DNA of 60,541 nt from a virus (IMGVR_UViG_3300042922_000817:1-60541); one strand, 5' to 3'; numbered from the stretch's first letter, positions 3,603-36,708 are shown. Notes: generated by a model from the letters alone, not told the origin. Made by a program: numbers and translations.

Positions 3603-4436
3603 CTACTTACTAAAATCAGTTACTTCGAAAGTAAGAATTTTATCATACACAATATAATCTTTTCTGTTCAAAAATTTATCAAATGTATAATAAGCTGATC
3701 CAGTACCATTTGCTCTAGAATCATACCATTTAATAAAGGCATCTAATTCATCTTTCGTTACTGGGTATTCTCTTTCGACTTCTTCAGCTAAAGTAATTGT
3801 TAGTAAAAATTTGCCATCATCCAATGGTTTATTTGGATTAAAGTTTTCTGTCCAACGAGCGATATTTGAGATGCGAAACTCATCAATATAGCCATTAAAG
3901 CCATAAGATGAGCCATAAGCACCGATGCAAGATGATAAATCAGCACCGTAAAGCAACTTGTCACTATTAAAAGTATTTTTTAAAACCCCGTTTTGAAATG
4001 CATAGAACACATTGCCTTTTCTCACCAATGCATAGTGTGTCCACTCATTAAGAATTACAGGACCAATAATTAGGTTAAGAGCCATGTCCCAAGATTTACC
4101 CGTTGAAGAAAGCGAAAAACAAATATTAGAATTATATACATGCCCAATCGAAAATGGGTTAGCACCATAGGCGCTACCTTGCATTTGATACTGACTTCCA
4201 GATTGTGAACTAATTCTATATTCCCACCAATCCACGGTAAAATTAAAATCATTTAAGGGATTGAGCATATTGTCTAAATAACTACTCCCATCCAAATATA
4301 AACTTTTCCCGCCAAATTTACTCTGATCTGTGGAAACTACCGGATTGCCCACTGCCGTCCAAACTTTCCCCGTTTCATCTTTAATTCCTTCGTCAAAATG
4401 TAATAAAGACACTGTGTAATCGTCTACTTGATACAT
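3603..4436 (-). CDS. LamG/concanavalin-like lectin-domain protein with a conserved uncharacterised C-terminal domain (moron)
   Basis: LLHFD...KFGGKSLYLDG...WTHYALVR...FNGYIDEFRIS LamG motifs; C-terminal EREY..FIKWY..RKDYIVYDKILTFEV domain; own promoter, leader and terminator. Confidence 0.8.
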   Translation of the reverse strand: MYQVDDYTVSLLHFDEGIKDETGKVWTAVGNPVVSTDQSKFGGKSLYLDGSSYLDNMLNPLNDFNFTVDWWEYRISSQSGSQYQMQGSAYGANPFSIGHVYNSNICFSLSSTGKSWDMALNLIIGPVILNEWTHYALVRKGNVFYAFQNGVLKNTFNSDKLLYGADLSSCIGAYGSSYGFNGYIDEFRISNIARWTENFNPNKPLDDGKFLLTITLAEEVEREYPVTKDELDAFIKWYDSRANGTGSAYYTFDKFLNRKDYIVYDKILTFEVTDFSK

Positions 4437-4468
4437 AAATAAATCTCCTCCTAAAATTAAATTATTTC

Positions 4469-4567
4469 GAAAGCCAATATAGCAAAGGAACTTTTATTTT
4501 AATTGCGTGTTTCCTGTATATCAGCTTTCACCTATATACATTCTTTGAACTGCGATTTTTAAACACA
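4469..4567 (-). promoter_or_regulatory. Shared promoter-like motif plus structured leader, copy A
   Basis: TGTGTTTAAAAATCGCAGTTCAAAGAATGTATATAGGTGA followed by a long hairpin (4469-4529); homologous to 7173-7275 and 36609-36708. Confidence 0.75.
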
Positions 4568-4625
4568 TAGAATAAAAAAAATCCGGCATCGATACATTTT
4601 TTGTATCAGTGCCGGATTTTCAAAT

Positions 4626-5282
4626 TTAATATGTGTATCTTAATTTTACAGTTGTCTTTTTATCATCAAAATCATGATCTACAGCAACGCCTAAATATTT
4701 ACCGTCATTGCTGATTTTACGTGATACCGAATAACCGATCTCTTTTGGTGTCCAATCATCCACGTTTTGGGGTGCATAATCAATTTGCCGCAATATTTTT
4801 TTATATGCATGCACATTATATTGGTTGAGTACAACTGGATCAGTTGCTTTATACTGCGATAAATCTACTTTTTCATTCGGACTTGATGGATTTGTAACAA
4901 TAGCAAAATCAGCACCAGACTTCTGCCGTTCTTTTTCAACGACGACAGGCACTTGCTGTACAACTGTATGAGTTATAGTGTCTGGTGCTTTATTTTTGAG
5001 TAATGCAATTTGTTTTGCCGCCTCCTCTAACTGACTTTGCAGCATATCAATATGCGCATTATTAGCAGCTTCTTTTACACCTTCCGATGTCTCGGCTCGT
5101 TGTTGACCTTCGTATGTAACTGGTTGCGATTTTGCAAAAAAATGTTCATAGGCAATATAACCAACTAGGCAAAATAAAACCATAGCCAAAATAGCTATGG
5201 TTACTTTTATACGCTTTGGTAAGGCTTCGACTTTCTGCTCTGTTGCTTGCATGACCTTCTCGGCTAATTCTTTTTCATCCAT
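4626..5282 (-). CDS. Putative spanin-like lysis protein (N-terminal TM, coiled coil, C-terminal beta strands)
   Basis: Last gene of the lysis cassette; one TM helix at about aa 27-45; ends in amphipathic strands ...KLRYTY. Confidence 0.5.
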   Translation of the reverse strand: MDEKELAEKVMQATEQKVEALPKRIKVTIAILAMVLFCLVGYIAYEHFFAKSQPVTYEGQQRAETSEGVKEAANNAHIDMLQSQLEEAAKQIALLKNKAPDTITHTVVQQVPVVVEKERQKSGADFAIVTNPSSPNEKVDLSQYKATDPVVLNQYNVHAYKKILRQIDYAPQNVDDWTPKEIGYSVSRKISNDGKYLGVAVDHDFDDKKTTVKLRYTY

Positions 5283-5367
5283 TTTACAAACCTCCTAAAT
5301 TAATAAAGCACTTAAATCGTCCTCGTAGGATTCGATTTAAGCGCTTTATTAATATCTACTTAACTTT

Positions 5368-5883
5368 CTACGCAAAATAATCAGTTACACCACGTGCGAT
5401 TGCATGTGCAAAATCAGCTTGGCGATCTGCAAGTAATTGCTCATCATCCGAATTACTGATAAATGCAGTTTCGACTAAAACAGACGGGCAATCAGTATAT
5501 TTGAGTACATACAATCCAGTGCTGTATTTTACGCCTCTGTCGACCGTTCCAAATGATTTTACAATCTGATTTTGAATATTAAAAGCTAATGAATCACCAG
5601 CGCCACCAGAAGCATAACAGAACGTTTCGGTTCCTTGTGGATCTGGATTTGCTGCAGCATTACAATGAATTGATACGAATAAATCCGCACCAAATGAATT
5701 GCTTGCATTAGTGATATCTGCAAGTTCATTCTCTTGTACGAATAAAACTTCATAGCCAGCTGCTTGTAAATCTCTGCATACAATATGTGCGATATTCTTT
5801 ACTACATCTGCTTCCTGCAAAAATGTTCCTACGGCACCAGAATCTAGACCAGGGTAATGCCCTGCATTAATACAAATTTTCAT
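5368..5883 (-). CDS. Endolysin, N-acetylmuramoyl-L-alanine amidase (Amidase_3), catalytic domain only
   Basis: INAGH, E, SIHCNA and LVETAFISN zinc-amidase motifs. Confidence 0.92.
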   Translation of the reverse strand: MKICINAGHYPGLDSGAVGTFLQEADVVKNIAHIVCRDLQAAGYEVLFVQENELADITNASNSFGADLFVSIHCNAAANPDPQGTETFCYASGGAGDSLAFNIQNQIVKSFGTVDRGVKYSTGLYVLKYTDCPSVLVETAFISNSDDEQLLADRQADFAHAIARGVTDYFA

Positions 5884-6155
5884 TTCTCATTACCATCCTT
5901 TTCTTTATAACTTCCAACTTGGCTATTGTATTTACTGTTAATAAACTTATTTGCTACCTGTGTAGCAGCACCACCACCGCCAGTAAGACTCGCAAACGTT
6001 TCATAGTTCTGCCAGCCGGTACCTCTCCAAACTAAATAAAAGCTGACAAACAAAAACGCCAACCATCCAATGATAGCTAGCGTTCTTGTTAATGATAATT
6101 GTCCATTTTCATATAAGAGCATTACCAACCATTTCTTTATTTTAGTATTCACCAT
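5880..6155 (-). CDS. Holin-like membrane protein
   Basis: LSLTR motif followed by hydrophobic helices; overlaps the endolysin start. Start moved to the RBS-supported ATG at 6155. Confidence 0.6.
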   Translation of the reverse strand: MVNTKIKKWLVMLLYENGQLSLTRTLAIIGWLAFLFVSFYLVWRGTGWQNYETFASLTGGGGAATQVANKFINSKYNSQVGSYKEKDGNEK

Positions 6156-6453
6156 ATTCACCCCCTTCCGTAGGTAAATCTTGCAATCTTTCATAAAGCG
6201 TAGTCACGGTTCCATTGCCACCAAGATTATGGTAAGCATCGTACATATTACTCACATTCTCACGTGCATATATTGGACAATATCCTTTCTCGCTGTAGTG
6301 ATTATATGTTTGTATGATACGATCTCTTAAGATTGCTCTCATACCTAAGCGCAAGGCATGGTTTTCTGCTTTGTTTTTTTTTACAGTAGAAACAATCCAT
6401 GTGCCAATGATTCCAAAAATAAATTGTCCCCAATAATTAATGATAAAATCCAT
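6142..6453 (-). CDS. Holin-like or lysis-associated single-TM protein
   Basis: N-terminal TM plus the LRDRI...YDAYHNLGGNG motif common in Firmicutes phage lysis cassettes; start at MDFIINY after a GAGG RBS. Confidence 0.65.
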   Translation of the reverse strand: MDFIINYWGQFIFGIIGTWIVSTVKKNKAENHALRLGMRAILRDRIIQTYNHYSEKGYCPIYARENVSNMYDAYHNLGGNGTVTTLYERLQDLPTEGGEYGEY

Positions 6454-6532
6454 TTTTCGACCTCTTTTCCGCATAAAAATAGAGCCTATATAGGCTCTAT
6501 CCTAAGTAAAACCTTTATTATTACTACTCTTT

Positions 6533-7147
6533 TTAGTATATCCCTCTTATTTCTTTTACCAATGAGTATTTTGATTTTATATCCAGTGAAGTTAATGATG
6601 ATGTTGCTTGGATATCTGAATATCCTTCGGTATTAGCCCATCCCCAAATACAGGAAATAGATGCCGCATTAATTCCGTTTGCCATTACATCTTGCAATTG
6701 GCTTACTGTAAATTCTCGGTATTGTGGTCTCCAATACGCCGTGTTGATAGATGAATATTCGGTGAAAAGCACTCCGAACTTTCGATAATTAGCTAACGAG
6801 TCACTTAGAGGTATAATATTTGTAACCACTGTGCTACCGGTTGTACCAACTGATCCACTCCATAATGTTTTTTCGCCTGCGCCAGAGCTTCCCGAAGCAG
6901 GCAAATTAAAATTTACAACAGCTAAATTTGCCATCACACCATCTAGATTTGTACATCTTGCATAAAGTTTTTTCCCTGTCTCTAAGCTAAATGGCATCTT
7001 TTCTTTTGGTTGTAATTCAATGCCCGTATCTTTTTCGGGTGAATTATCGCTTACAACTAATTCAATAGTAAAGCAACTAGATTTATTCTCTAATACCCCT
7101 TCTGTTTCTTTTACTTCTGTGAACTTTTCATTTAAATTGTAAATCAT
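6533..7147 (-). CDS. Two-domain beta-rich protein resembling virion decoration/fibre-tip domains (moron)
   Basis: N-terminal pattern similar to the 31194 protein, a Gly/Ser linker, then a LWSG...LSDSLANY...IRGI fibre-tip-like domain. Confidence 0.55.
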   Translation of the reverse strand: MIYNLNEKFTEVKETEGVLENKSSCFTIELVVSDNSPEKDTGIELQPKEKMPFSLETGKKLYARCTNLDGVMANLAVVNFNLPASGSSGAGEKTLWSGSVGTTGSTVVTNIIPLSDSLANYRKFGVLFTEYSSINTAYWRPQYREFTVSQLQDVMANGINAASISCIWGWANTEGYSDIQATSSLTSLDIKSKYSLVKEIRGIY

Positions 7148-7172
7148 TCTTATCTCTCCTTTTTATTTTTAA

Positions 7173-7275
7173 TGAACTTCGGCAATCTACAAACCTATTA
7201 GAATTAATCATTATTTCATGTTTGTTTTACCGTCTTCACTTATATACATTCTTTTAATCGCAATTTTTAAACACA
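7173..7275 (-). promoter_or_regulatory. Shared promoter-like motif plus structured leader, copy B
   Basis: TGTGTTTAAAAATTGCGATTAAAAGAATGTATATAAGTGA followed by a hairpin with CGGTAA/TTGCCG and ACAAAC/GTTTGT stems. Confidence 0.7.
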
Positions 7276-7325
7276 TTTAGAATTAAATTTTTTAGTCATA
7301 AAAATAGAGCCTATATTGGCTCTTT

Positions 7326-10300
7326 CTATTCAGCAAATTCAATAGTATCTTTTAATGCGCTTTTTTGTTTCTTGTCCATTGAATCAATAGCACGTTCTTT
7401 ATTGTTCAAACTTTTACGGCGACGTTCATTTTCGATACGCTTCGGCGTGATTTTTAGCTCTTGTAGCCGTTTCCTATTTTCTGCTGTCGGATTCTTTATG
7501 AACGTATCAATTGCATCCTGTTCATCATTTTTGCGTTCATTACGTTCATTGTACATAGCATCTTTTAAATCTGTAGTAATGGCTTCATCTGTTGTTCTAA
7601 AGCCCATTGCATGTAAAATCCTTTCATAAGCAGAATCATAGGTTGTACCAACGCGGTGACGAGTAGTTCTTGTTTCACCAACAGCGGCTTGTAGCATATT
7701 ACCGAGTGCCGGGGAAAATGCTTTGATTGTTTCAATTGGATTGCCATTTGTGGCCTGTTTTAACATGCCGCTTACGGTGCTTCCTGCCGGTCCCATAAGT
7801 TGCATATCTGAAAAGAAGTTTGACATACCAGCACGATTTGAAATATCAATACCTACATTGCTCAAAATACCATACATAGCAGTATTCGCTATAGCTTGTT
7901 TCGTTGCATCTTTGCCGGCCCATTCCATTAAGATTTTTTTCGATGCTTCTTTTGGTTTCATACCCGTACATAGAGTGATAAGCTCATCGAATAAATCCAT
8001 AAAAGGAAATTGCCCCAATCCTGCAATCAATAAAAACGGTAGCCAGAACTTTGCGTTTTGTTTCCAATCTCCTTGTTTTGCAAGATTCATAATAAATTCC
8101 ATTTGCTTAATCGGATACTTTTGAAATTGGAATAGATTTTGCGTTATTACAGATCCGCGTCGAATCATGTTAGGCGCATCTTGTACTCCATAACTAAAGT
8201 TTGCATCACGATCCACTTCCTTGGCATACTCTAATGCCTTATAAGAAATTTTGTCACCAGGTGCCACCTTATACCCTTTAGCTTCAACACCTTGATAATA
8301 TGCACCTAATACAGCAGTTTTTCGCATAAGCGCATCTGCTTTCGCAAACAGGAACATTCCTTTATCCATAGTCCAATTCAACTTATCTGTTGTGAACTGT
8401 GCCGCACTTTTAATACCTTTCATTTTACCTGATGATTTTACGGAACTTCTACGTTGCGAATAACCACCGGCATCGGCTGAAATATTGATATCGTTAAGAG
8501 CACCACTTTCATCAATGATAAATTGATCTATTGGGCTTGGATTTAGCGCTTTTTTCAATCCTTTCATGGCATATTCATAGCTATTTGTTTTACCAACAAT
8601 GTTAAAAAACTGCATAAAGTTCATGAGCGCAGACGATGTATTAAAAAAACCAAGTTTTGCTTTAGCCATTGTTCCAGAAATACCAGAAGAGATCTGCAGT
8701 GCTGGTCGATCGCCGAAGTGGTCACCCAATACGGTTTGGAAAAATACGTTGCCTTTCAATGCATCATTTAAGGCGTTTTCAACTGATGTTGGATTGCCGT
8801 TAATATCGTTGATATAATTTTTGATATAGTTTGCGGTTTGATCTTTAGAATAGTCATCATCAAATCGGCCAAAGAATCTTTCGAACTGGCTTATTGCATC
8901 CGGTTTAAATTCTTCCATAGCAACATAACGGCTAGATGAATTGAAATAGTGATTGAGTACCCAGAATAAATCCTTCTCAAATCCCGCAGTACCTTTTCTA
9001 TGCAGCATGTTACCAAAGAATCTATGCCGTGCTTTTAATCCTGCACCAGATTCATGAAGGAATTCGCGAGCTTCTTTGAGTGTCATGTCCGTATTATCTG
9101 CAACCTGTTTTGTCATTTGAGCAAATTCATTATCACCTAGAACGGCTGCAATTTCTTTTTGCCCATCAAAGTTAAATTCTTTAGATCGAATCACATATTC
9201 CTTATCCGCATTTTGGGGTAGCCCTGCAATATCATTAGCTTTGTGAATTGCTTCCGATAATTTTTTGCCACTTCCAACAACCTGATAAGAATATCCTGAT
9301 TTGTTCGTAATATCTTTAACTTTTTCCATAATCATATATTCATGGAAAAAATGAGACAGATAACCTTCTCGATTTACCATAGGAGCAATTCTTTCAAAAT
9401 AATCTACTTTATATAAACCGTTTGGCTGCAGCATGGCTTTAGTTACTTGTATGTTTTCATCTTGCTTGAAACGTTCTAAGGTTTCTTGGTCAATAATCTC
9501 ATCTTGTTTACTCCACGTTTTAGGAGACTTATAGCTCACAAGATGTTTTTCATCATCTTGCTTAATTGTTTTAAGAACATCAACGAACTTATTTTGACGC
9601 AAATTTTCTAAATCAACATCGGACATAACTTTATTTCTAATCTTAACCTGTTGCCGAGTATCATTAATGAGATTGTATGCCTCTTTAAGTTTATTACGAA
9701 TCAGGTTATAGGCATGGATAGCATTATCACTAAGCCCCATTTCTTTTAAGTCTTTGACACTATATTCTTTTTGTTCAGCATCACCTTGCCATAGAGCCGC
9801 AGTACATTGTTCTAGGTCTTGATCTTTTTTGAGAAAAAATTGAACTTTCTTCATATCCTTTGCAAAAGAGTTACGCAACTTTTCTTGCAAGGCCATAGCT
9901 TTATCTGCTAGACGGAAGAAAATAGCAAAAACACGATGAGCTTTTGCTATTTCGGATGGAGAACGCCAAAGTTTATCGGACAAGCTCAACTTATCCCCCT
10001 TAGGCAAAGTATCTACGGTAACGTTACTTGCGGTTTTGATTTTCATGCCAGTTGCTTCTGCTAACTTTTTAACTGCACGTGAGGCAAGGTCTTTAACCAA
10101 TGTACTATCTTTAGACATAGAAAAAGCACCCTTTTCAGAGCGCGTTTCCTTTATTTCATGAAATTCTTCAAAGTTTTTTGAATAAGCAATTGCAGTATTA
10201 TCGACATTAAATCCAGCATTTTCATCTATGATTTTCCCCGTAGCTATTGACTCTAAAAGACCGTTGTTCTTTCTAAATATGCGTTTTCCTTCGGCATCAC

Positions 10301-13300
10301 GCATATCTGCAGCTATTTGATAGAACTTTGATTCCATTAAGTTACCTTGCGTTCTATTTAGTCCGATTGGTTCTAAATAAAGTCTTTTGAACTTCTGTAA
10401 AACATTATTGATAAACTCAATGAATCTTTCATACAGCGAAGGATCTTTCTTAGACAGCATTTTAGATAAACCAAGACGGCCTGCAACATCGGTCATTTTA
10501 TCAGCCATCATTTCCTCTATAATATCGTCATCAGACATTACATATTCGCCCTGTTCGTCAGTCATTTCACCCATTGCAATTTCTTTTCTGTATTCATCAA
10601 TTTGTGCTTGATTTATAAGGGAATGTTTCTGGATTGAATCTTTCAGATCATTGAATAAACGATTATTATTCCTTGTCATCCAATGAAAAGTTTCATGCCA
10701 AAAAGTCCATTGGGGAGTTAAATTACCATTTCGATTGAGATATGTTGTACCTCCTGCATGAAAACCACGTAGCCCGGATGGACCATCAAAAAAACGTACC
10801 TGGCAATTAAGTGTTTTGCCAAGATTGTTAATTCGATTTTCTTTATCGGTAAGCTTTTCAGTCGGAATGAACTTAATTTTAGCACCACTTTTATCTTGAA
10901 TCACTTGAATAATATCCGAATCTAAAATAGAATCATCGGCAGAAAACTTTATAGTCTTATCGCCACTGATAAACTTATCTGCCATATCGACAAAACGATC
11001 ACGAGAATCTTTACTGCTAAATAAAAAGCTTTTAGCAAAGCGGCTCCAATAACCATCATTTCGCTTAGCTAAAGAAGCAACCTTACGATAGTCATCTTTA
11101 TCTAAAGTTATGCTTGATGCTGCCGTATACTGCGTTTCTTTTGATTGGGTATTGATGTGTTCACCAATTGCAAAGTTACTTTCTGTTTGCGTAGTAGACG
11201 TGTTATCAGGTTTAGTTACGGATTCAGATAGTTGTTCTTTTTCGTTCACAGCCGGCGTAGTAACTTCAATACGGTCCGGCATATTCATATTTTTGATTCT
11301 ATCAAAGAATTCTTCGACATTTTTTGCATTTGAAATATCAGTTGCGCTTGAATGTACACGTTTGCGAAGTGACTCATTTTCAATTTTATCAATCACAAGA
11401 ATTTTAGTTCCAACCTTTGTTCCGGCTCTTTCAAATACAACACCTGGCAACTTGATTTCTTTTACAAGAATAGCGTCTTTTGCACCATCACGTTCCTCTT
11501 TTTCCTTTGCCTTTTCATCACCATAAAACCATTTATTAAAATGCTTCTGACAACTAGGTCCATCTGGAACAATTGCCACTATACGGCCACCATCACGCAA
11601 CTGCTTGTATGCTTTCGCTACATGTTCAATCGCTGTTTTTCCTCCACTTCCAAACGGTGGATTCATGACAATTGAATCAAATTTATTCCCGACATAGTAA
11701 TCTTCAAAGGTACTTGAAACCAGCTTTCCGTTACTGGACATTTGAGCTGATGTGGCAAGCTCCTTACTTGGTTCAATCATGACGTTTTCTGTGTTTGAAG
11801 GAAACCATCTTGAAATAGCACCATGGCCAGCTGATGGCTCTAAGACCTTTTCGCCTTGTTTGATATTGGCCCATTCAACCATCTTATAGCCGAGCGGTTC
11901 CGGTGTAGCAAAGTAATCATTACCCTCGGCAGATTTTGTTTTAGCATTCTTTTTGCCACGTCCATAATAGAAAGTCTTTGCACGATCGAACTCTGTTAAA
12001 GCTTCTCGTGTTGCTCTATCTTTTGCTTTCCCACCAATACCTTCGCCTTCGCTTCCTGGGAGGTTATCTTTCCATGTATCTGTTCCAAGTGTATCTTCAA
12101 AAGCACTAACAAATGCATCTTTCAAATTTCTTGCTTCGTTTCCTAATGCAAGATTCTCGGCCGTACTTGCACGTTCTGCGATCTTACTCGCAAAGGCCAT
12201 TCGTTCTGTATTCGTACCAGTATTGAGATAACGAAATATAGCATTTGATTTTTGTCCAACTCGATAGATACGACCTTCAATTTGAATTGCAGCTACTGGC
12301 TTCACTGGCATTCCTAAGTTAAGTAAAACACGTTGATGTTTTCCTGTTGTATCATGAAGACTTATACCGGCTTGCCCAGCATCAGATTGCACTAGGATAA
12401 TATCTTTTTTACTAGCGTCATCGTTGAAAAGCTGCACATTCTTTTCACGATCTTTCTTACTAATATCGCCATTAAATAAAAGAACATCCTCACCAAATGC
12501 TGATTTTAAAGTACTGATTGGGGATTGCAAATCACCTAAATCCAAATTAATTAAATCCGCCCGTTTTGATGCGAATTCATTATATTTTGCCTGTAATTCC
12601 TGTGGAACATTACTACGTTGGAATGGATGAATTGATCCGCCCTTTTTAAAATCATGAAATACTACAACCTTCTTACCGCTATCTCTATATTGCTTTATTA
12701 AATCAACAGCACCACGAGCCTTGATTGCCTCAAGTAAATACATTCGTTGATGATGCTTAAAACTGTTTTGCATATAATCATACAAATCTCTAAAGTCACC
12801 ATTTTTACTATCAGATAGCCATTCAAACCCTTCATCAACCTTATTACCTATACCGCCGTCAACCAGAATAAAGCCTCTATCGTAGTCTTTATCTACTGTC
12901 AACATACGTCCTGACAATGCACCATCATTTCTTAATTTCTCATGAAATTGACTTTCCATAACACTACTATCAACATTACCTTCCGGCCTTGTAAGCTTGT
13001 TATAACGCATACGATATCCGAAGTTTTCCAGCATAAATTGTTCTTGCCCGTTTGGTTCATTATATCGAGCACTATCTTTTTTAGCATAATCAAATAAATA
13101 ACCTTCGGCATAATCAATATTGGGAACATAAGCAAATGGCGTAGCTGAAAGGAATGTTACCTTCGGTTTCTTATCATCAGGAATATTCGACCACTGCTCA
13201 ATTGTCGCGTCTTGCTTTTTGTGAAGCTTATTCCATAGAGCTTTACTCTTTTTTTGCAACATAGAAAGTTTTGATTCTAAAGCTTTCTTATTGGTACTAC

Positions 13301-16300
13301 TCTTTAAGGCTTCATTTATAGCTTTGATATCTTTTTCAATATGATCTATTACAGCATATGCCTTTTCATTCAGACGATTAAATCGGTCGAATAAGCCTCG
13401 TTCATGATATGTAATAGCTCTTAAATTATCTAAGGCATTCGTTGGTGCGCTTTTTTCACTGCTCATAAGGCTTTGTGATTCATCTGCTACAACCAAGTCC
13501 CAATCACGATTAACAAGTTGATTGTTATCACCCATGTTTGCATATGTAGTGACAACAATTCCAGATCCTTTGTCCTTCGTATCTTCTAATTTACTGACAT
13601 CTAAATCAAAGTATTTTTTAGCTGCTTTTTGCCAATCAGTATTGATTTTATCACTTGGTGAAAGGATTAGAATATTATTTTTACCCTGCATTGCAAAACG
13701 TTTTATTACGCCAAGACCAGTAAATGTTTTTCCTGTACCGGTCCCATTTGTAAATAACACACCATTTTTTTCATTATTCAACAATCGATTTTCTGCAAAT
13801 ACTATATCTTCTTGTTGTTCAGGCAATAACATAGGCAGGGTATCACGAACATTATTCGTATCCCCTGCCTTGAAGTTTTCTTTATTCCCTTTTACGGCTG
13901 CGCGCTTAACGGTTGCATTGTCTGATCTGTTTTTAGAAGGTTTAAGATTTCCTCTGTTTCCTTTTGGGTCAGAAACGGGTTCTCCTTCATAGCTATCTCT
14001 AACGCTTCCTGATAATTCAGTACTTCCGGTGCTACGTTTCGAATTGCTGGATTCTTCTGTGCGTACTCGGCTATTGCTAACCGTTCCGCTAGAAGTGGTG
14101 CTATCTCCGTGAATGTGCATGCTACCTCGTGACTGTGTCCCTGTTTCATCAGGCGATTGTATTCCTTGTCGTCCGCTTCCACTGGATTCGGTTCCTGAAA
14201 CATCCTCCCCCACTGAGTTTTGATGCTCCCCTTGCCCAGTTCGTGGAGCCAATCTATCGGTGCTGCTAGAAGTGACATTTTGTATTTCCTCCTTTGTTGG
14301 GTATTTGATAACACCTGCATAGGCACTATCTACAAGATTGGCATATTCTTTACCAATCGTTTTTTCTAATTGTGTTTTCAATTCAGCTTTATCTGTAACA
14401 CCTTTATCGTATTGCGTACCAACATATCGCATTACGGCAGACATTTGATTTTCGTTGAATTTGAGATCCTTCGGGTAAGCATTAATAGCATCCCAAGTAC
14501 TTTGCAAGAAAGGTTTGGTTTGATCAGCTGTATCAATCATAGCCTTTGACCAATCCGCAAAGTTATTTAAGCCGCGTTGCAAGTGAATCATGCCTATTTT
14601 GAATGCTGCAGTCATAAGTTTCGGATTAAACATTGGATTTGCCGATATATTACTCATTTCAGTAGAAAACTCTTTCAATGCCTCATTTAATGCATCTTCA
14701 CTATCATCAATTACATGAAATGTTTTCGATTTTTCCGAAACGGGTTTTTCTAAACCAAAGGTACTTAACATATCATTGAGCGCATCTTCTTCACTGCCAA
14801 AGCGTTCTGCAGTTGATGATTGTTTTGGTAGCTGCTTTTCAGTTTCTTCACTCAAAGGTTTTTCTGCCGTTTCTTTTTGAATCGAATCTACTTGCTCTTT
14901 ATTTTGATTATCATTGATTGTGTTTACTTTATCTGTTGGAATATTACTTGATTGTACCGCTGAATTTGTAAAACTAGAAGTATTTACCCCTGCTTTTTCT
15001 AAACGCTTTCGCATATTGTCTATTGCGATTGGGCGATTTTGTTTTAGACCTGCCTTTAAAGTGCTGTTGACACGAAGTCCATTTTCTTGAGCAACTTTAA
15101 GAAGAGTTTGTCCTATATTTTCCGAGTTCACTTTTTCTTGAGATATATTCGGCATAATTACATTTGGAGCTTGCACTCCTGCAGTAGTATTTAACTCTTG
15201 CTGTGTATCAGTAGGCATGATCTGTGAATTTAAAGATTTAGTTTCCTGTGAATCCTCTTGGTTTGCATCATCGACTTTTCTTGCATTGATATCACCGAGG
15301 ACATTCGCAAGATTTGATAATGCTTCTTTCTTCTTCGGATCTACAAAGTTTTCCTGCTGTGTAGGTGTGAATCTTTCTATTGGTTTACTATTCTGACTAG
15401 ATGGATTTGTATTTATAGGCAAGTTACCTGAAGGAATCAAAGAACGAACCGCTGGTCTGTTTGAGAAGTAACTTGGCGCCGTCATACGAACCATACCATT
15501 ATCCAGCGGTTTCGCGGTGAACCCCTTTGATATAGAATCGTTTTTAAAATCGTTTACTTTGCTTTTAGGTAAATCAATGTATCCTTTAGCAGCAATACTA
15601 GCAATAGCGGTATTCCGGCTTACGGCAGTATTTTGTTTAGTTATCTTTGGAGCTTTTATTTCATTTTTCACACCACCATATTTTTCGGGGAAAAGAATAC
15701 TTGCCGTTTCTTCCGGCAATAATTTTGCAATTGATTCAATGTCGTGGTTATCAGTTGCTTTTGATAACTCATCAGTAAAGGCAATATCTGTGTTTGCATC
15801 TAAACCAGTAGGCATATTTGCTACATCTTCTGCCATTTGCAAAATCATAGAACTATTTTCTGGTGTAATTTGATTGGAACTTAAAGCATCTTGTAATTGT
15901 TGATCACGTTGCTTGATCTGCTCGTCTGTGAGTTTTGGACTAGATACGGCTGAACTATCTTTTTGAGAAGCCCCACCAGCTAGTGCCTCGCCATGATCAG
16001 AAAAATGAATATGTCCGCCAGTAGCATTTGCCGACGGATCGCTATATTCATCAAGTGCAGCCAATCCATATTTTTGTCCCTGCTCAATAAGCCACGCACG
16101 CGCCTCTGGATCATTAGCCAAAGTATCGTTTGCAATATCTACAGCTTGACCACTGTCGTGCCACGACGAACCATCACCATCACGTTTCATAGAAGTAATA
16201 TCCAACGTCTTCCCAAACTGATTATAATAGTCACGAGCTAATAAGTTGAGTTTTGTTTCCGTTAAGTCTGTCAGTCCTGTATTGGATACTTCACCAGTAA

Positions 16301-22478: not shown

Positions 22479-22481
22479 TCA

Positions 22482-23471: not shown

Positions 23472-23477
23472 TTTCTT

Positions 23478-25019: not shown

Positions 25020-25029
25020 AAAAATTCAC

Positions 25030-25521: not shown

Positions 25522-25530
25522 TTAAATCAC

Positions 25531-26079: not shown

Positions 26080-26387
26080 GATGTCACACCACCTTGATAG
26101 TATTTGCTCTGAGTATGAACAGCAAAGGCAGGATGAATCTCAAAGAACTTTTTGAGCATCTTTGAATATTCATGCTTGTTACCAGCAAACTGCGCTTTCC
26201 TTGCTTCAATAAGCCACGGGTCGAACATCCAATACTCCGGTGGAATATATCCCATACAGACAATGTTTTTGCCTCGGGCACTGCTCTGATTCGCATCATG
26301 TGCCAAATCAATTGCATCCTGGCAATCAATTGTATTGCTAAGAATCAGCTTGTCGTCTTCTTGGCTAAATTTCTGTTTTAGAATCAT
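26076..26387 (-). CDS. Conserved hypothetical head-associated protein
   Basis: Directly downstream of the capsid gene, has an RBS and overlaps the adaptor start. Confidence 0.55.
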   Translation of the reverse strand: MILKQKFSQEDDKLILSNTIDCQDAIDLAHDANQSSARGKNIVCMGYIPPEYWMFDPWLIEARKAQFAGNKHEYSKMLKKFFEIHPAFAVHTQSKYYQGGVTS

Positions 26388-26468
26388 ACATTCACCTACT
26401 TTTCTTATAAAGATAAAGGCATAAGAAAAAGCCCACCTAAAAAGATGAGCTTCCCTCTGAATAATAAA

Positions 26469-27650: not shown

Positions 27651-27721
27651 ATAAAGTCACCTCTACTAATTTATTTTATATATAAAAATAGACACGCATT
27701 TAGCGTATCTAGGATTATTGC

Positions 27722-28870: not shown

Positions 28871-29136
28871 TCTTCTTCCCCCTTTTGCTCAAGTTTTTTG
28901 AGCTTTCTATCTTTTTGCTCACCTTTTGCTACAATTTTTTTTAGATCCTCTTCAAAATCTAAATACGCTTTGTACTGTGATTGCAAAGCAGGCAAGTTGC
29001 TACTATTTCTAAGACCATCCAATACCTCACGTTCTTTTTTTGCTCTCCATTTCTGCATAAATTTCAAGGCGTTTTGAGCCTCTCGCCCTTCCGTAACATA
29101 CCGTTGTATATCAAGTTTTTCTGATTGTGTTATCAC
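28867..29136 (-). CDS. Small head-module protein
   Basis: Typical post-portal gene of podoviruses (GREAQ...W motif). Confidence 0.6.
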   Translation of the reverse strand: MITQSEKLDIQRYVTEGREAQNALKFMQKWRAKKEREVLDGLRNSSNLPALQSQYKAYLDFEEDLKKIVAKGEQKDRKLKKLEQKGEED

Positions 29137-29147
29137 TCAAAAACCTC

Positions 29148-31178: not shown

Positions 31179-31193
31179 TAGGTTTCACCACCC

Positions 31194-31484
31194 TCACGGC
31201 GTATACTCTGCAATGACAACATTAGTCGCAGCACTAGCAATCAAATATATATCCGCACTACTATTAACCGGAATCAAACGTGTTGCTCCGGCAGCAATAG
31301 GAATGCCCGTGGTAATCGTTACATCACTTCCACCAAAGAAAACAGTCGCATTGCCAGCTACATTGTTGATTTCAAGTGTTGTACGACCTTGTCTATTTTG
31401 CGAATTACTACAAGCTCTAACTGGATTTGTGGAAACTGCTACCTTTGAAGAGAACATCTGTCCAACTTGGCTTCCATAGTCCAT
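31194..31484 (-). CDS. Small beta-sandwich protein, possible head decoration
   Basis: R..LEINN...VFFGG...TGIPIAAG pattern; start moved to the ATG at 31484 after AAGGAG. Confidence 0.55.
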   Translation of the reverse strand: MDYGSQVGQMFSSKVAVSTNPVRACSNSQNRQGRTTLEINNVAGNATVFFGGSDVTITTGIPIAAGATRLIPVNSSADIYLIASAATNVVIAEYTP

Positions 31485-31509
31485 ATTGATCAACTCCTTT
31501 GATTTGGAC

Positions 31510-31907
31510 ATAAAAATAGCGACTATGTACGCTAGTCGCTTAAACTTATTAGTCAATACTTATAAATTTTCTCGGTTCACTTTCTTTATCCATATGAACA
31601 TTAGGAACAAAAGTCAATGCTTCAGCTACTGAATAACTACCATCTGGATTTTTTTGTTGTGTACTAACTTGCACAATGCAACCACCATGAACGTTGGCGA
31701 CTTTTGTTGACTTCATCCAGCCTTGTTCGTTACTACTAGCTTTACATAACAATGCGAACGTGTCCCCGGTACCGTATACTTTGATATCAGAAATATTTTC
31801 CTTCGCCGTTTTAACACAATCAATATCTAATGTCTTTTCAGTCATTATAAATTCACTCCTTAATTTTTGGTATAAAAATAGCGACTATGCTTCTACACTA
31901 GTCGCTT
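31510..31907. repeat. Duplicated terminator hairpins (31510-31541, 31872-31907) flanking the 31549 gene
   Basis: ATAAAAATAGCGACTATG...CTAGTCGCTT occurs twice with different loops. Confidence 0.8.
31549..31845 (-). CDS. Conserved small phage protein (KASS..GWMKSTK..GCIVQV motif), function unknown
   Basis: Good RBS; motif recognised as recurrent in phages. Confidence 0.65.
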   Translation of the reverse strand: MTEKTLDIDCVKTAKENISDIKVYGTGDTFALLCKASSNEQGWMKSTKVANVHGGCIVQVSTQQKNPDGSYSVAEALTFVPNVHMDKESEPRKFISID

Positions 31908-32275
31908 TATTTGTCAAGTCTTCTAAGATAATGCAATAGCGGCATGAATGAGTCTGGTAATCCTTTATCTCCGTACTGTTCTTCTATGTCGCCAATGAAC
32001 GCATGGGATAACTCTTTCAATTTGCCATATTCTTCTTGTGAGGCAATTACAACCGCGCATTTATCGCTTGGGCAGAATTGATTTGGCTGGTTTTCTGGAT
32101 CTGTTACTACTTGTTTTGCTACTAATCCATTTTCACTTTCATCATAAGGAAATGGTACACATTTTTGCCCAGAAACAATTTCAGCATGAGTTTGAGTTAT
32201 GATTAAAGTATCGTGAAGGCAATGATGCATACGCATATACTCAACAGCGTCCTTGCAAGCTTCTTTTAATTCCAT
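31907..32275 (-). CDS. Hypothetical protein
   Basis: ORF coupled to its neighbours. Confidence 0.55.
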   Translation of the reverse strand: MELKEACKDAVEYMRMHHCLHDTLIITQTHAEIVSGQKCVPFPYDESENGLVAKQVVTDPENQPNQFCPSDKCAVVIASQEEYGKLKELSHAFIGDIEEQYGDKGLPDSFMPLLHYLRRLDK

Positions 32276-32277
32276 TA

Positions 32278-32736
32278 CTAATTTTCCCCCTTATTCATCC
32301 CGTTGGCACACTGCAGTAAGAAGCCAAGCAAGAACCAAACTTTATCTTTTATTTTCTCGATGCAAATTTCGGTACCAACTTGCATATCAAAATTTTTAGC
32401 ATCAACACATGAGCTGCTTTCAACTAAAATAAAACCATTTGCTAACGTTGCCTTTACAACGGTTGTTTTGTCACCAAGCTGAGTGTAATCAACGTTTTTG
32501 ATAAAAGAATCAACATCATCCTGCATAATAGTATTTTGATCACTACCAAATTTACGATAAGCTTTTTCGAATACGTCCTTAGGCGACCACGAAACATAAT
32601 CATCACTATACTTAACCACATATCCATCATCGTCTGGATTTTCATCCGCTGGGATAGTCCATCCTTTAAACCCGTTATAAGCCCCCCTTGTCATCAATTT
32701 TGCCTGAATCCTTTTAACTCCAATGTATTTATCCAT
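32278..32736 (-). CDS. Two-domain protein: YIGVK..GY.V.Y..SWSPK domain fused to an N4 gp49/Sf6 gp66-like domain (possible nucleotide sponge)
   Basis: C-terminal KTTVV...NGF...SSCVD..NFD..G..IC...W.LLGFLL matches the gp49/66 family pattern. Confidence 0.7.
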   Translation of the reverse strand: MDKYIGVKRIQAKLMTRGAYNGFKGWTIPADENPDDDGYVVKYSDDYVSWSPKDVFEKAYRKFGSDQNTIMQDDVDSFIKNVDYTQLGDKTTVVKATLANGFILVESSSCVDAKNFDMQVGTEICIEKIKDKVWFLLGFLLQCANGMNKGEN

Positions 32737-33065
32737 TATTCATCCCTCTTTCTACTTGTCATACACTCTTTTGTAAAGCACTGAGGATATTGCAACTTAA
32801 TTGCATTTAGCCCCAACAATGCAGTATTAATAATAGCCACTGTTTCTGCTGTCTTATCGCATACAAAAACGATATGACCTTTCTGACAATGCTGAACATC
32901 GGTTTTAGTATCATAATATCCACATCCCCGGGCAGCAGTTTGTCCGATTGCAGATACAGCAGCGCAAACAATATCGTCACCTTTTGCATAATCAGCATGC
33001 CCACGAATATAAATACCTGTTTTACCATCATCTTTATATGGTTTGACTTCTCCAAATGTAATCAA
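32736..33065 (-). CDS. prp: Phage-encoded Prp ribosomal-processing cysteine protease (DUF464)
   Basis: GHA...DIVCAAVS catalytic His/Cys motif, LLGL..I..QYP C-terminus and about 109 aa length. Confidence 0.88.
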   Translation of the reverse strand: MITFGEVKPYKDDGKTGIYIRGHADYAKGDDIVCAAVSAIGQTAARGCGYYDTKTDVQHCQKGHIVFVCDKTAETVAIINTALLGLNAIKLQYPQCFTKECMTSRKRDE

Positions 33066-34541
33066 CTACATACCTCCTGCCTTTCTTGTTTTGCCTGCAC
33101 GACGTAATTTTTTATATTTTGTATTGGTATTTACCTGAACTGGAAACGCAAATGTCAAAGCAAATGCATCGCCAAGATTCGGTGATGGTATTCCACGCTT
33201 TTTCATATCTTGCTTGCTCTCTAATTGCAGCTTTCCATGGCTATTTATAAACGCTTCTGGCGCAGTCAGGTCATTGTAGATCGTTTGATCATCATCAATC
33301 TTCCCTCCATCTTTAAGCCAATCTTTTGCATCTGACCACATTTCAGCCCGTTTATTAGCAAATCCATCTTTTGTCGGTGCTTCAGCAAACGCTACAAGCT
33401 TCCAATTATCACGCCCCATACTAACACCTGCACTATATATGCCAGTTCCATAGCCCATATCAATAAATACAGCTGATGCCGAATAATCATCTTGAAACTT
33501 TGCAATGCGTCCAGCCATGAGCATATCGTTATCATTCTTTGGATATACTGCAAGCTTCTTACTGAATAAGCCTTGCCGAAGCATTATCGCAAAACTATCA
33601 TCACCGCTCCAAGCCGGATCAACACCAATAATAGCAGGAGCAAAACTATACTGACTTTCTAAAATGGTTCGCTCTCTTGCAGCTGTTGCAATCACAGTTG
33701 ATATAAACTGATTCACTGATGCACTTGGGAATAATCCACGAACACGTACTTTAACAAAGTCACTATCCTCACCGTAATCATCTACCCACTCTTGCAATAA
33801 CTTCTTGTTACTGATCTTAACGGTCCGACTATCAATCTGCTTCGTATGCCAACGATTTCGATATTTATGAAAGCAATCAAAAAAACGTCCAGTATTCCTT
33901 GTTGGATTACCGAACGCACACCATATGATCTGTGTATTACTGTCGGTTAACGCACCTTCTGTTACTTCCCATATTGCATCTGATATCGCCGATGCTTCAT
34001 CAAATATAACTAAGATACGTTTACCTTCATTATGCAGTCCGGCAAATGCTTCTGGATTCGATTCGCTCCAAGGGATTGCATCAATACGCCACGTCTTTTG
34101 GTGGTCTGCATCAACACTAAAGAGTGCTGTTGCTGTATATGTAAATAGCTCTTTAGCAATAAACAAGCGATGCCACTTCGCAAGTTCAGCCCATGTTTTA
34201 CTCTTAAGCTGCGTATCTGTATTTGCAGTAACAACACCTCGTGTATCTTCAAATGTTGATATCGCCCATAGAATAATCCATGAAACTAGAGCTGATTTAC
34301 CAATACCATGACCAGATGCAATGGCTTCACGAATAACTTCATCAGCTGTTTTGATTCCATCACGAATATCTGCAAGTAATTCTATCTGCCATTTATCGGG
34401 ACCATCTTTTCCTTTTAGTTCATCTTCACCCCATGCAAAAGCGGCATATACAAAGCCTAGTGGATCGCTACTAAACTCAGCTAAAAATTCAATAAGAGCT
34501 TGTTGTTCTTCTGGCTTATACTCACTCTTCTTTGCAGCCAT
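33066..34541 (-). CDS. terL: Terminase large subunit
   Basis: Walker A SGHGIGKS, Walker B IFDEAS, GNPTR coupling motif, nuclease GVDPA and SPNLGDAFAL. Confidence 0.93.
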   Translation of the reverse strand: MAAKKSEYKPEEQQALIEFLAEFSSDPLGFVYAAFAWGEDELKGKDGPDKWQIELLADIRDGIKTADEVIREAIASGHGIGKSALVSWIILWAISTFEDTRGVVTANTDTQLKSKTWAELAKWHRLFIAKELFTYTATALFSVDADHQKTWRIDAIPWSESNPEAFAGLHNEGKRILVIFDEASAISDAIWEVTEGALTDSNTQIIWCAFGNPTRNTGRFFDCFHKYRNRWHTKQIDSRTVKISNKKLLQEWVDDYGEDSDFVKVRVRGLFPSASVNQFISTVIATAARERTILESQYSFAPAIIGVDPAWSGDDSFAIMLRQGLFSKKLAVYPKNDNDMLMAGRIAKFQDDYSASAVFIDMGYGTGIYSAGVSMGRDNWKLVAFAEAPTKDGFANKRAEMWSDAKDWLKDGGKIDDDQTIYNDLTAPEAFINSHGKLQLESKQDMKKRGIPSPNLGDAFALTFAFPVQVNTNTKYKKLRRAGKTRKAGGM

Positions 34542-35019
34542 TTAGTGCACGCTCCCTTGCTTTCTTTAAGGTATCAGCAATACCAACGCTACCAGTAAGT
34601 TCAACGTCTTTCTTATCTCGCCATACATCTGGTTTACGATTCTTAAGCCAAAAGATTTGCGCTGTAGTATCGGGAGGCACAAACACTTCTTCATCTGCAT
34701 ACTCAATATGTTCTTTTTCACTGATACGCTTGCCATTATCGTACAGGACTTCTTTTACCTTGATAGCCTTCGTGACTGTCTCTTTGAAACCTAAAGCCTT
34801 TTGCAGTAGCGCATTTTCAACTTGACGATCAACAATTTCCTTGCCTTTTTTTAAGGTGTCAGATATGACAGGATGCTTCTTTATCCAATCGTATAAAGTT
34901 TGCCTTCTAATTCCCATGTTCGTAGCTATCTGTTCATCAGTTAAACCATCATGTGCCCAACCTTGAATCTTAATTAATCCTTCTTCTGTAAGCCACTTCT
35001 CGTATTTACCTTTTGCCAT
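34522..35019 (-). CDS. terS: Terminase small subunit
   Basis: N-terminal HTH and PDTTAQIFWLKNRKPDVWRD motif; overlaps terL. Confidence 0.85.
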   Translation of the reverse strand: MAKGKYEKWLTEEGLIKIQGWAHDGLTDEQIATNMGIRRQTLYDWIKKHPVISDTLKKGKEIVDRQVENALLQKALGFKETVTKAIKVKEVLYDNGKRISEKEHIEYADEEVFVPPDTTAQIFWLKNRKPDVWRDKKDVELTGSVGIADTLKKARERALNGCKEE

Positions 35020-35149
35020 TACATAATCACCAACTCCCTAAGATTGTTTGTTTTTAGTTTAAATTAAAAGGAGTGAAGATTTCTCTCCACTCCTAGAAAT
35101 ATTAAGTTCGAGAAAGTTTTGCAAAAAACTATTCCCTAATACCTAATAC

Positions 35150-35830
35150 CTAATACCCAATAGCAAACCAGTTAAATTTCGGTGCTTCAGTGAAATTTTT
35201 CGTGTCGTTGCTATCACCAACAATATCAACAGATGATGTTGTTAAGGATTTAACCCATATTACAGGCACCCATCCACCACTAGTAACATGTCCTGCAGCT
35301 GTCGCATACACTTGTAAACAAGCATTTGGAAATGGGATTGGGAAAGGGACCGTCTTGGTTGTCACAGTTCTTTCACTTGTAGGAAAATTAGAACTACCCC
35401 ACTGTAATATCAAGCCACCCGGCAATTTTTGGTAACCATTATTGTTATACAAGGCACTAAAATCATCAATTTTGGTGATATCACTACCATTTACCTGCGT
35501 AATCATAATATCCTTTGTACCATCAAAAGTTACTCCATTGATATTCCTTGCTGTTTCTAACTTTGTTGCAGTAGCAGAATTTCCTGTACACGTTGCTGAA
35601 ACATCCGCACTAAGTACATCTACTTGAATAGATACATCTGCTGAACCATCGAAGCTCGTACTACCCGTTGCATCCCCTTCTAATGATATTTTTCTTGCAG
35701 TTGTTAACTTAGCTGCTGAATCCGCAATAACCGCAGTTGCAGCGTCAACGATTTTGTCCTCTTTTAAGGCTCTAAAATTTTCTCTGATATCCGCTGTGTT
35801 GTCTACTGGTAAATTTGAATTGTAAGACAT
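35150..35830 (-). CDS. Short tail-fibre-like protein with a gp53-like C-terminal domain (moron)
   Basis: AKL.TAR.I...FDGS fibre repeats and [15 protein letters not shown]...FPIPFPN...WFAIGY tip. Confidence 0.75.
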
Positions 35831-35877
35831 GTAAATTTCCTCCTAAGTTTTTATTTAATATATTTCTTGATTTCTTA

Positions 35878-36582
35878 TTAATATTTAATACAAGCTAGTA
35901 AAGCAATGTTACGAGGACGGGTTTCTGTGCCACCGGTAGCTTCTGTTTGTCCAGTGATATATCTATCTGTAGATGGATTAGCACCAGCAAACCCCTGCCC
36001 GGAAGGCTGCCCACCAAACAAAGCATTTACATAATGTTTATGGTTTTTCAAAGCATCATTTTGCAACGAACCTATCAATCTATTGCCGTCTACTCCGCGA
36101 CCGTCATCATATCCACGAATAAACTCACCTCTAATATCTGGTAAATTAAATGTAGTACTGCCATCACCATTACCAAATGTCGTGCCTATTGCAGCAAATA
36201 AATTAGCATAGTCTGTTCTAGGAACTGCTGAACCATCAGCTTTTAACCATCCTGTTGGAGCATTTGCCATTGCAAAATATTGAACTGCACCTGCTGGAGA
36301 ACTAATATACATAATATCTGTTGCAGTTTTTCCGTTCAAAGTATTTGCATTATCTGCACTAAGTACATCTACTTGAATAGATACATCTGCTGTCCCGTCA
36401 AAGCTTGTACTACCTGCATCCCCTTCTAAAGAGATTTTTCTTGCACTCACTAATTTTGCTGCTGAATCCGCAACAACAGCAGTTGCAGCGTCGACAATCT
36501 TGTCCTCTTTTAACGCTCTAAGATTTTCTCTGATTTCTGCTGGTGCAGTAGTATCTGCTGGTAAATTTGAATTGTAAGACAT
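35878..36582 (-). CDS. Short tail-fibre-like protein with a tail-collar domain (moron)
   Basis: Same N-terminus as the neighbour; PAGAVQYFA...PTGWLKADG...FNLPDIRGEFIRG...ETRPRNIALLACIKY collar domain. Confidence 0.8.
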   Translation of the reverse strand: MSYNSNLPADTTAPAEIRENLRALKEDKIVDAATAVVADSAAKLVSARKISLEGDAGSTSFDGTADVSIQVDVLSADNANTLNGKTATDIMYISSPAGAVQYFAMANAPTGWLKADGSAVPRTDYANLFAAIGTTFGNGDGSTTFNLPDIRGEFIRGYDDGRGVDGNRLIGSLQNDALKNHKHYVNALFGGQPSGQGFAGANPSTDRYITGQTEATGGTETRPRNIALLACIKY

Positions 36583-36608
36583 AATAAATTTCCTCCTAAA
36601 TTTTTATT

Positions 36609-36708
36609 GAAAACCAATATAGCCAAAGACCTCTTATTTAATTGTTTTTTTGTCTTGTATATCGGCTCTCACTGATATACATTCTTTGAGCAGAGATTTT
36701 TAAACACA
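36609..36708 (-). promoter_or_regulatory. Shared promoter-like motif plus structured leader, copy C
   Basis: TGTGTTTAAAAATCTCTGCTCAAAGAATGTATATCAGTGA followed by a hairpin (36609-36670) that covaries with copy A. Confidence 0.75.

Follow-up and report, generated by a model that had tools for sequence, protein, structure and literature searches.

How does a single soil prophage come to carry the same promoter-like motif three times, at dispersed sites, in front of genes for fibre- and lectin-like proteins, and what would read it? We addressed this question in a virus record of the IMG/VR database (IMGVR_UViG_3300042922_000817; 60,541 bases, completeness estimate 98%), the whole of which we call the window. 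An initial annotation had described three cassettes in it, which we refer to as copies A, B and C, as a hidden regulon of this phage. Our analysis indicates that the finding is real and that its scope is wider than that annotation saw. Rather than a regulon private to one phage, the motif marks a host-wide class that extends over multiple prophages and also includes glycoside hydrolases, proteases, DUF1659 operons and sigma factor genes. Judging from sequence comparison, A, B and C are likely promoters of one class read by a host sigma factor, and in A and C the promoter would be followed by a leader hairpin that influences the fate of the messenger RNA (mRNA).

One probable promoter class in prophages and hosts

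The motif, TGTGTTTAAAAAT-N8-AAAGAATGTATAT, spans 34 nucleotides (nt) and occurs exactly three times in the window with 0 mismatches, always on the minus strand (A, 4534-4567; B, 7242-7275; C, 36675-36708). At up to three mismatches the window contains no further copy, and 100 shuffles gave none (0 expected). Either half-motif by itself occurs in the window at chance frequency, so the signal lies in their combination at a fixed spacing. The core has the layout of a promoter, with a -35-like GTTTAA, a 15-nt spacer and a -10-like GAATGTAT. A weight matrix built on 26 motif copies scored A, B and C at 55.8, 50.6 and 49.5 and everything else in the window at 10 or below; over four phage genomes, scores were either above 36 or below 10, with none intermediate. 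Throughout the 26 copies, GTTTAAAA and GA(A/C)TGTATA are invariant and the 15-nt spacing is constant. Two conventional readings were rejected, both judged against consensus sequences. A housekeeping-sigma promoter (TATATA with TG) would be off register by one and would have A or C, rather than T, at position -7. A SigD/FliA site could be read at GCCGATAT in the leader's 5' arm, but this stretch varies, co-varies with the 3' arm and is missing from hairpin-less copies, with no TAAA at 14-16 nt spacing.

Behind every copy in the window, the motif is followed by a hairpin and then by a ribosome-binding site (RBS), as had been described. Copy C precedes a tail-collar fibre-like gene of 234 amino acids (aa) (35878-36582, minus strand, as are all genes and terminator-like sites of the three units; Pfam Collar, 82.4 bits; PHROG 523, tail collar fiber protein) and a gp53-like fibre gene of 226 aa (35150-35830; Pfam Gp53-like_C, 71.2 bits). 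A terminator scan placed terminator-like hairpins upstream of copy C (36762-36781) and between this cassette and the small terminase gene (34522-35019), which together with the large terminase gene opens the long structural operon. Copy C is unlikely to drive the late operon in its entirety: the second hairpin (35094-35069) separates it from the small terminase gene, and in the related phage G002 the collar-fibre cassette adjoins lysis genes instead.

Copy B lies after the last gene of the structural operon, which encodes 3501 aa, and after a terminator-like hairpin found by the scan (7323-7306). The transcription unit behind it contains five genes (4626-7147). These encode a 204-aa fibre-tip-like protein without a family match (6533-7147), a 110-aa protein (6142-6474), a 104-aa holin-like membrane protein (5880-6194; PHROG 1322, membrane protein), an Amidase_3 endolysin (5368-5883; Pfam, 132.9 bits; PHROG 435, endolysin) and a 218-aa protein (4626-5282). 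The sole relative of the 204-aa protein is a G002 protein (42% identity over 97 aa) that in turn matches a tail-fibre-like gene of G003. In the intergenic gaps of unit B, the scan listed no minus-strand terminator-like site, and three such sites lie inside its genes. The unit ends at a hairpin with a T-run upstream of copy A (about 4574-4617), which we read from the sequence and which the scan did not list. Copy A precedes a single gene for a LamG/concanavalin-like lectin of 277 aa (3603-4436; Pfam Laminin_G_3, 50 bits), followed by a terminator-like hairpin in the scan (3561-3592). The earlier description of units insulated by terminators thus stands, and so do its LamG, tail-collar and gp53-like assignments; what it missed is that unit B runs on into lysis genes.

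The same promoter recurs in other phages. An exact-motif scan of viral contigs returned 11 further copies in four other records, and relaxed scans brought the total to 25 real unique copies; matches judged to be chance (L010, L012, L013 and L015, four of six genome-contig matches, and a site common to L017 and L018) were dropped before counting. We compared three related proviruses over their whole length. G002 is related to the window, and G001 is related to G003; the latter two have almost no genes in common with the window beyond cassette proteins, an ImmA-like protein and, in G003 only, the endolysin. G001 carries seven copies and G003 four, all grouped at the lysis/accessory end, and none of the three proviruses has the motif before its terminase genes. 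In three other prophages the promoter directly precedes lysis cassettes. G003 has its lysis cassette twice (a holin-like gene, an endolysin gene and a 145-aa gene; L027, G003:C1 about 50900-57600), with the promoter before the second only. Arrays of cassettes with near-identical junctions around differing genes are found in G001 (seven in 11 kb), G003 (four) and G006 (four in 7 kb).

Host chromosomes carry the class as well. A scan of one genome per species yielded two true matches, in metagenome-assembled genomes (MAGs) of a Massilibacillus and an uncultured Veillonellaceae, both of the class Negativicutes, and four chance matches. The two MAGs contain 6 and 20 matches at up to three mismatches, and the reversed pattern gave 0. 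Within the class, 12 of 201 genomes have the motif at up to two mismatches (reversed control, 0/201). Behind the host copies lie genes for a GH51 arabinofuranosidase with CBM4_9, two Pel9A-like beta-helix proteins, GH53, GH43, GH26 and GH30-like enzymes, a papain-family protease, a C39-like peptidase, LamG+fn3 proteins, fibre-like proteins and proteins without a family match. Most of these downstream proteins have no signal peptide at their start, as judged by eye. In the genome G010, strict-motif copies comprise six in the proviruses G002 and G003 and one before another lysis cassette. We also noticed that a hairpin-less form of the promoter precedes genes for 570- and 332-aa proteins, kept in two genomes, and for 563-, 325- and 301-aa proteins (L051:4013-6859, L056:891-3723 and L050:4317-8328); neither set has a Pfam or PHROG match.

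A structured leader coupled to the promoter

The hairpins of copies A (4463-4530) and C (36603-36671) belong to one type, type I, which the covariance model R1 recognises at 78.8 and 82.4 bits, and RNAfold predicts them to be stable (-16.2 kcal/mol, z -2.62, and -17.4 kcal/mol, z -4.37, respectively). The hairpin of copy B (7171-7240; -15.0 kcal/mol, z -3.16) is of a different sequence, type II, in keeping with the initial annotation: R1 does not match it in the window, and matches its relative L079, from another genome, weakly (29.8 bits). A and C contain the same small bulge. The compensatory changes claimed between them are borne out at two apical pairs that change on both sides (G-C to A-U and A-U to C-G); by contrast, the differences in the basal segment (GAAAGC/GCTTTC versus GAGAGC/GTTTTC) are one-sided and stay paired through G-U wobble.

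A type-I hairpin lies behind 52 of the 69 unique promoter copies. The remaining 17 comprise five with a short leader immediately ahead of a holin-like gene, four in which a DUF1659 operon follows, three followed by host proteins without a family match, two before a GH26 gene or a C39-like gene, one with a truncated leader, and two with a type-II hairpin, namely copy B and a copy in G025. On a MAFFT alignment of the 52 copies, with the RNAfold structure of copy C as the structure counted, 87.2% of cells are paired, compared with 36-50% when the partners are slid, and 41 cells are changed on both sides, compared with 6-15 in the slid controls. The covariation is 0.253 (controls at most 0.126), and of 500 shuffles 0 attain the observed value. 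A leader-only covariance model with a fitted alignment of 58 distinct copies, an alignment that leans towards structure, gives 90.1% of cells paired, 55 double-change cells in nine pairs, and a covariation of 0.291 (controls at most 0.099). This model finds 59 matches at E<=1e-4 in 569 kb, including copies outside the building set, and upstream of all but one of the new copies that we inspected there is a variant of the promoter. Matches on the sense strand score mostly 50-88 bits (38-40 for two divergent copies), those on the reverse strand 20-28, and G-U pairs are abundant; the frequent G-U pairs and the low reverse-strand scores point to an RNA structure on the sense strand. Among the copies the loop is variable and the register of the stem constant.

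Against Rfam 15, the leader has 0 matches at gathering score in the window, and elsewhere only chance-level ones (E up to 1, in L001, L003 and L045). The proposal of an undescribed cis-regulatory RNA is therefore supported by a conserved, strand-specific hairpin with covariation and no Rfam match, and the 58 distinct copies, usually coupled to one promoter class, make it a candidate new structured 5' leader RNA.

What might such a leader do? The stem starts 4 nt after the box, within a TGAAAG that is also conserved in hairpin-less copies. The stem does not include the RBS, the sequence after the 3' arm is rich in A and is no U-tract, and no leader hairpin was among the minus-strand sites listed by the terminator scans. 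The leader is therefore probably neither a terminator nor a switch that sequesters the RBS. We favour instead a hairpin at the 5' end that either influences the stability of the mRNA or lets a protein dock; a role as 5' stabiliser, taken singly, we consider somewhat less likely than not. Stem-loops at the 5' terminus are known to stabilise mRNAs in Firmicutes, as in the leaders of ermC, aprE and phage SP82. Like these, the hairpin described here is long and imperfect, lies a few nucleotides from the presumed 5' end, and is upstream of the RBS and apart from it. Unlike them, the type-I hairpin is conserved in both sequence and structure over 58 distinct copies and is bound to one promoter class. 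We also observed that the -10-like TGTATAT forms an inverted repeat with ATATACA in the leader's 5' arm (window 36656-36681; same place in 52 copies). This alternative pairing is complementary in 95.9% of cells and displays no covariation or informative variation.

A candidate sigma factor of the Negativicutes

The distribution of the promoter points at a candidate for the factor that reads it. In both host genomes, a search with Sigma70_r2 gave a weak match exactly within the hydrolase locus that holds three motif copies. The protein, P0002, has 168 aa and matches Pfam r4_2 (36.7 bits) and, weakly, r2 (23.0 bits). Among NCBIfam models it reaches only the generic superfamily TIGR02937 (45.1 bits; cut-off 42.9), and it remains far below the cut-offs of the specialised subfamilies: 37.4 versus 234.35 for SigBFG (TIGR02980), 25.4 versus 315 for Sigma_B, 35.7 versus 252 for SigK and 37.8 versus 190 for FliA/WhiG. 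The initial annotation had likened the promoter to those of the SigB/F/G group, an assignment that these scores contradict. The best relative of P0002 with a solved structure is FliA (E 5e-6), and the nearest ESM-Atlas clusters are sigma-like proteins of about 170 aa, mostly viral, which we treat as a lead only. Family members have 160-200 aa; in P0002 and three others, regions 2 and 4 reside in one chain, and the r2 and r4.2 segments, presumed to recognise DNA, are conserved across the family.

The locus of P0002 ties the sigma gene closely to the promoter class. Its order is promoter, leader, a 66-aa open reading frame (ORF), the sigma gene, a promoter in the last codons of that gene, a beta-helix gene, another promoter and the GH51 gene. 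This type of layout also occurs in G007, in G104 and four times in G040, and a box overlaps the 3' end of the sigma gene in G104, G040 (four times) and G182. In G040 the sigma copies lie directly downstream of prophage holin and endolysin genes. Where the promoter is embedded, it occupies the last ~16 codons of the sigma gene (..ARLK..GMY..), with the -35 box formed by the R-L-K codons; sigma genes of this kind were seen at L064:6115-6648, L065:3064-3543 and L081-L099.

The family is widespread in the class. A homologue at E<=1e-15 is present in 58 of the 201 genomes, and all 12 motif-positive genomes are among these 58. In 23 orthologous chromosomal loci the neighbours of the sigma gene are an ABC-F gene (22/23) and a RecD2-like gene (20/23), and at 19 of these 23 loci the box lies across or after the 3' end of the sigma gene and is succeeded by a short leader and a DUF1659-type ORF. 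In G182, Pfam identifies DUF1659 (78 bits), DUF2922 (84.6 bits) and YvrJ (62.2 bits), with the YvrJ-family gene after DUF2922. In G010 and G006 the DUF1659 gene has been relocated, yet GTTTAA-N15-GAATGT lies immediately upstream of it, after a T-run. The box cannot therefore be explained as a by-product of the sigma coding sequence.

From these data we infer that the promoter class is read by a small sigma-70-family factor of the Negativicutes that resembles extracytoplasmic function (ECF) sigma factors, with its presumed control of the DUF1659 operon read from gene adjacency alone. The alternative-sigma promoter that had been postulated thereby gains a candidate family, whose own locus carries the box, and we propose a promoter consensus for this uncharacterised sigma family, which is conserved across the Negativicutes. 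Even at lax thresholds, nothing in the window matched Sigma70_r2, r4, r4_2 or P0002. Lacking a recognisable sigma factor, the prophage probably depends on that of its host. The host flank of the window is 82% identical to G010:C7:257784-259521, and G010 carries both the chromosomal sigma gene and the DUF1659 promoter. Most simply, the host's sigma factor would transcribe units A, B and C.

Several known systems resemble this arrangement in part. Small divergent sigma factors of the phage-associated late or release type, such as Xpf of PBSX and the clostridial TcdR and UviA, activate lysis-type genes together with exported or released proteins, and with the clostridial factors release is holin-dependent. 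The sigma copies of G040, placed directly after prophage holin and endolysin genes, are reminiscent of these systems. By contrast, the window phage has no sigma factor of its own, the core sigma gene is a conserved chromosomal one (between ABC-F and RecD2-like genes), and the structural late operon of G001-G003 has no such promoter before it.

The linkage of sigma, DUF1659 and DUF2922 genes, in places with YvrJ, recalls SigS-SroAB of Staphylococcus aureus and SigO of Bacillus subtilis. According to the parts of the SigS literature covered here, SigS directly transcribes sroAB (DUF1659 and DUF2922), methyl methanesulfonate (MMS), which damages DNA, induces the system, and SroA stabilises sigS mRNA (bioRxiv 10.1101/2022.10.19.512975; PMC13192611). 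The likeness, a small alternative sigma tied to a DUF1659-DUF2922 pair, is one of gene linkage only, and the Negativicutes family differs in having its promoter embedded in the last codons of the sigma gene itself. The same parts of those texts describe for SigS no promoter consensus, prophage cassettes, glycoside hydrolases or 5' leader hairpin. The targets of SigO (YvrI)-RsoA are given as oxdC-yvrL and yvrJ as well as yvrI-yvrHa, with positive autoregulation, in the covered parts of two sources (PMC8103513; PMC12370630), and the first of these, a review, also mentions TcdR/BotR. As far as those parts go, both cases feature an atypical small sigma that regulates itself positively and has a yvrJ-family gene among its targets; in the Negativicutes, a box lies upstream of the P0002 operon. 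SigO, however, is split into two proteins, whereas regions 2 and 4 form one chain here. In the literature covered, we found neither this promoter nor this leader, nor prophage cassettes under such a sigma in Negativicutes; for SigS-SroAB and SigO, the parts of the texts that we covered contain no promoter consensus or cis-RNA.

Proposed mechanism, rival explanations and prophage context

These observations can be combined into a model. The presumed ancestral target of the sigma factor would be the DUF1659-DUF2922(-YvrJ) operon, reached via the same promoter class, which in some hosts would also drive signal-peptide-less glycoside hydrolases, beta-helix proteins and proteases, and in other prophages lysis cassettes and many fibre or lectin cassettes. 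In the window, three insulated units without a phage sigma would depend on the host's copy: two fibre-like genes in unit C, a fibre-tip-like, a holin-like and an endolysin gene in unit B, and the LamG lectin gene in unit A. Transcription would probably start within the conserved TGAAAG that immediately follows the box. The initial ~68 nt of the transcript are then predicted, for A and C, to fold into the conserved imperfect hairpin, at or near the 5' end, which may set the fate of the mRNA by protecting that end or by docking a regulon-specific factor. The arrangement suggests that unrelated prophages have recruited a host sigma circuit for accessory receptor-binding and lectin cassettes, and even for lysis cassettes, without a late regulator of their own there. 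In some hosts the same promoter and leader stand before plant-polysaccharide hydrolases without signal peptides, a link, within a single regulon, between lysis modules of phage type and carbohydrate-active enzymes. It had been suggested that the adhesins are expressed in the lysogen. The holin-like and endolysin genes behind copy B and the lysis cassettes behind the promoter in three other prophages argue against harmless constitutive expression there. The question raised is what activates the sigma factor on induction; the analogous S. aureus factor responds to DNA damage.

A number of points weigh against this model. RNAalifold, run on the 52-copy MAFFT alignment, returned no consensus structure, and the structure that we counted came from one aligned member. 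Because recent paralogues make up many of the copies, some of the pairing signal is inherited, and double changes occur in only 9 of 20 pairs, a pair count not beyond that of shuffles (67/500 and 61/500). As for the sigma factor, its orthologous loci in G010 and G006 are without the box, G007, an incomplete MAG, has no DUF1659 match, and the counts of sigma and motif co-occurrence are not phylogenetically independent. The sigma gene lies outside the window, and the link to a host is made through the 82%-identical flank in G010. Lastly, a lysis cassette under a host sigma would be risky for the lysogen, which suggests an unseen trigger or gate encoded by the phage.

Could the motif instead be a phage late promoter, used by the housekeeping sigma with a phage-encoded activator, with all host copies lying in prophage remnants? 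The lysis cassettes and the fibre-like genes behind many host copies would fit such a promoter, and the activator could be P0001 (or one that we did not recognise), a gene of 173 aa just upstream of copy C (37486-38007) with a predicted DNA-binding fold. Its structural model is a winged helix (pLDDT, the predicted local distance difference test, 72.6); MarR-like matches are weak only (E values of at least 0.01), and family searches gave no match. However, P0001 is present in one of five related viral records and absent from G001 and G003 with their seven and four motif copies. On these grounds, a restricted distribution, no family match and a modelled winged helix, we rejected it as a common factor or hidden sigma. 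BLASTP across four phage genomes revealed as common proteins only the ImmA-like and the LamG-type cassette protein, and no candidate late activator. Moreover, the terminase operons of G001, G002 and G003 are not preceded by the motif, any TATAAT-like reading has A or C instead of T at -7, and conserved chromosomal loci have the box in front of DUF1659 operons and of genes for glycoside hydrolases. We regard this explanation as improbable. As an observation in its own right, the 364-nt gap before P0001 (38008-38371, minus strand) contains a housekeeping-type promoter with a TG-extended -10 (38346-38319) and then a terminator-like hairpin, which suggests that P0001 is controlled by attenuation or antitermination.

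The tandem arrays admit another interpretation, in which the whole block of terminator, promoter, leader, RBS and first codons is a DNA junction for the homologous exchange of cassettes, and the RNA hairpin is incidental. Near-identical junctions surround different genes in G001, G003 and G006, the same junctions occur in unrelated phages, and the first codons, too, are conserved within gene classes. Yet two-sided changes preserve the pairing, as do G-U pairs, which on the opposite strand would not match, and the stem keeps its register while the loop varies. Exchange at the junctions is also compatible with promoter function and complements the host-sigma model without replacing it; as the explanation of the block, it seems to us to have little chance of being right. 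Most improbable of all, in our view, is a sporulation or general-stress sigma (SigK-, E-, F-, G- or B-like) whose products would reach spores or the surface of lysogens, as the initial annotation had proposed. The -35-like GTTTAA does resemble a SigB-type -35, and the hosts belong to the Sporomusaceae/Negativicutes, which include spore formers. The box-linked sigma, however, is a two-domain protein of 160-200 aa that falls far below the SigBFG, SigK and FliA/WhiG cut-offs, its spacer to the xxGTAT element is 17 nt as opposed to the usual 12-15 nt, and lysis cassettes lie under the same promoter.

Within the host-sigma model, a bolder extension is conceivable, which we think unlikely. One small sigma would co-activate prophage holin and endolysin genes together with signal-peptide-less enzymes (GH51+CBM, GH53, GH30, GH26, pectate-lyase-like beta-helices and a papain-like protease) and lectins or fibres, so that a subpopulation of these diderm Firmicutes would burst and free the enzymes, or particles decorated with them, in a lysis-coupled release programme. 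With the leader as cis-element, the DUF1659/DUF2922 (SroAB-like) proteins of the regulon itself would gate the stability of the mRNA. If true, it would be the first RNA target proposed for the DUF1659/DUF2922 pair.

The remainder of the window is that of a temperate phage with a short host flank. A large serine recombinase gene (57190-58779) adjoins this flank, which holds a truncated Mg-chelatase/ComM-like gene and a flavoprotein gene (region 57190-60396). Provirus G002 terminates with a homologous serine recombinase, and it is probably inserted at the same site as the window prophage. The lysogeny-side module includes genes for a Hypoth_Ymh protein, an AAA ATPase and an 827-aa S8 subtilase (52067-56325, plus strand), which may be defence genes. 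The 3501-aa ORF that closes the structural operon (7326-17831, minus strand) contains an SLT transglycosylase domain (aa 379-476), a ResIII/helicase region (aa 1339-1909) and an MTS methyltransferase domain (aa 1995-2104), and its centre matches PHROG 10691 and 5143, both of unknown function; the protein may be an injected multi-enzyme protein. A megablast of window positions 33000-38400 against the phage collection returned no match. The far end of the prophage carries genes for an HpaII-type restriction endonuclease (415 bits) and a C-5 cytosine methylase (344 bits) (147-2442, minus strand). Between the methylase gene and a 76-aa ORF, two near-identical terminator-like hairpins lie about 300 nt apart on the minus strand (3099-3078 and 2803-2782), which hints at a direct repeat.

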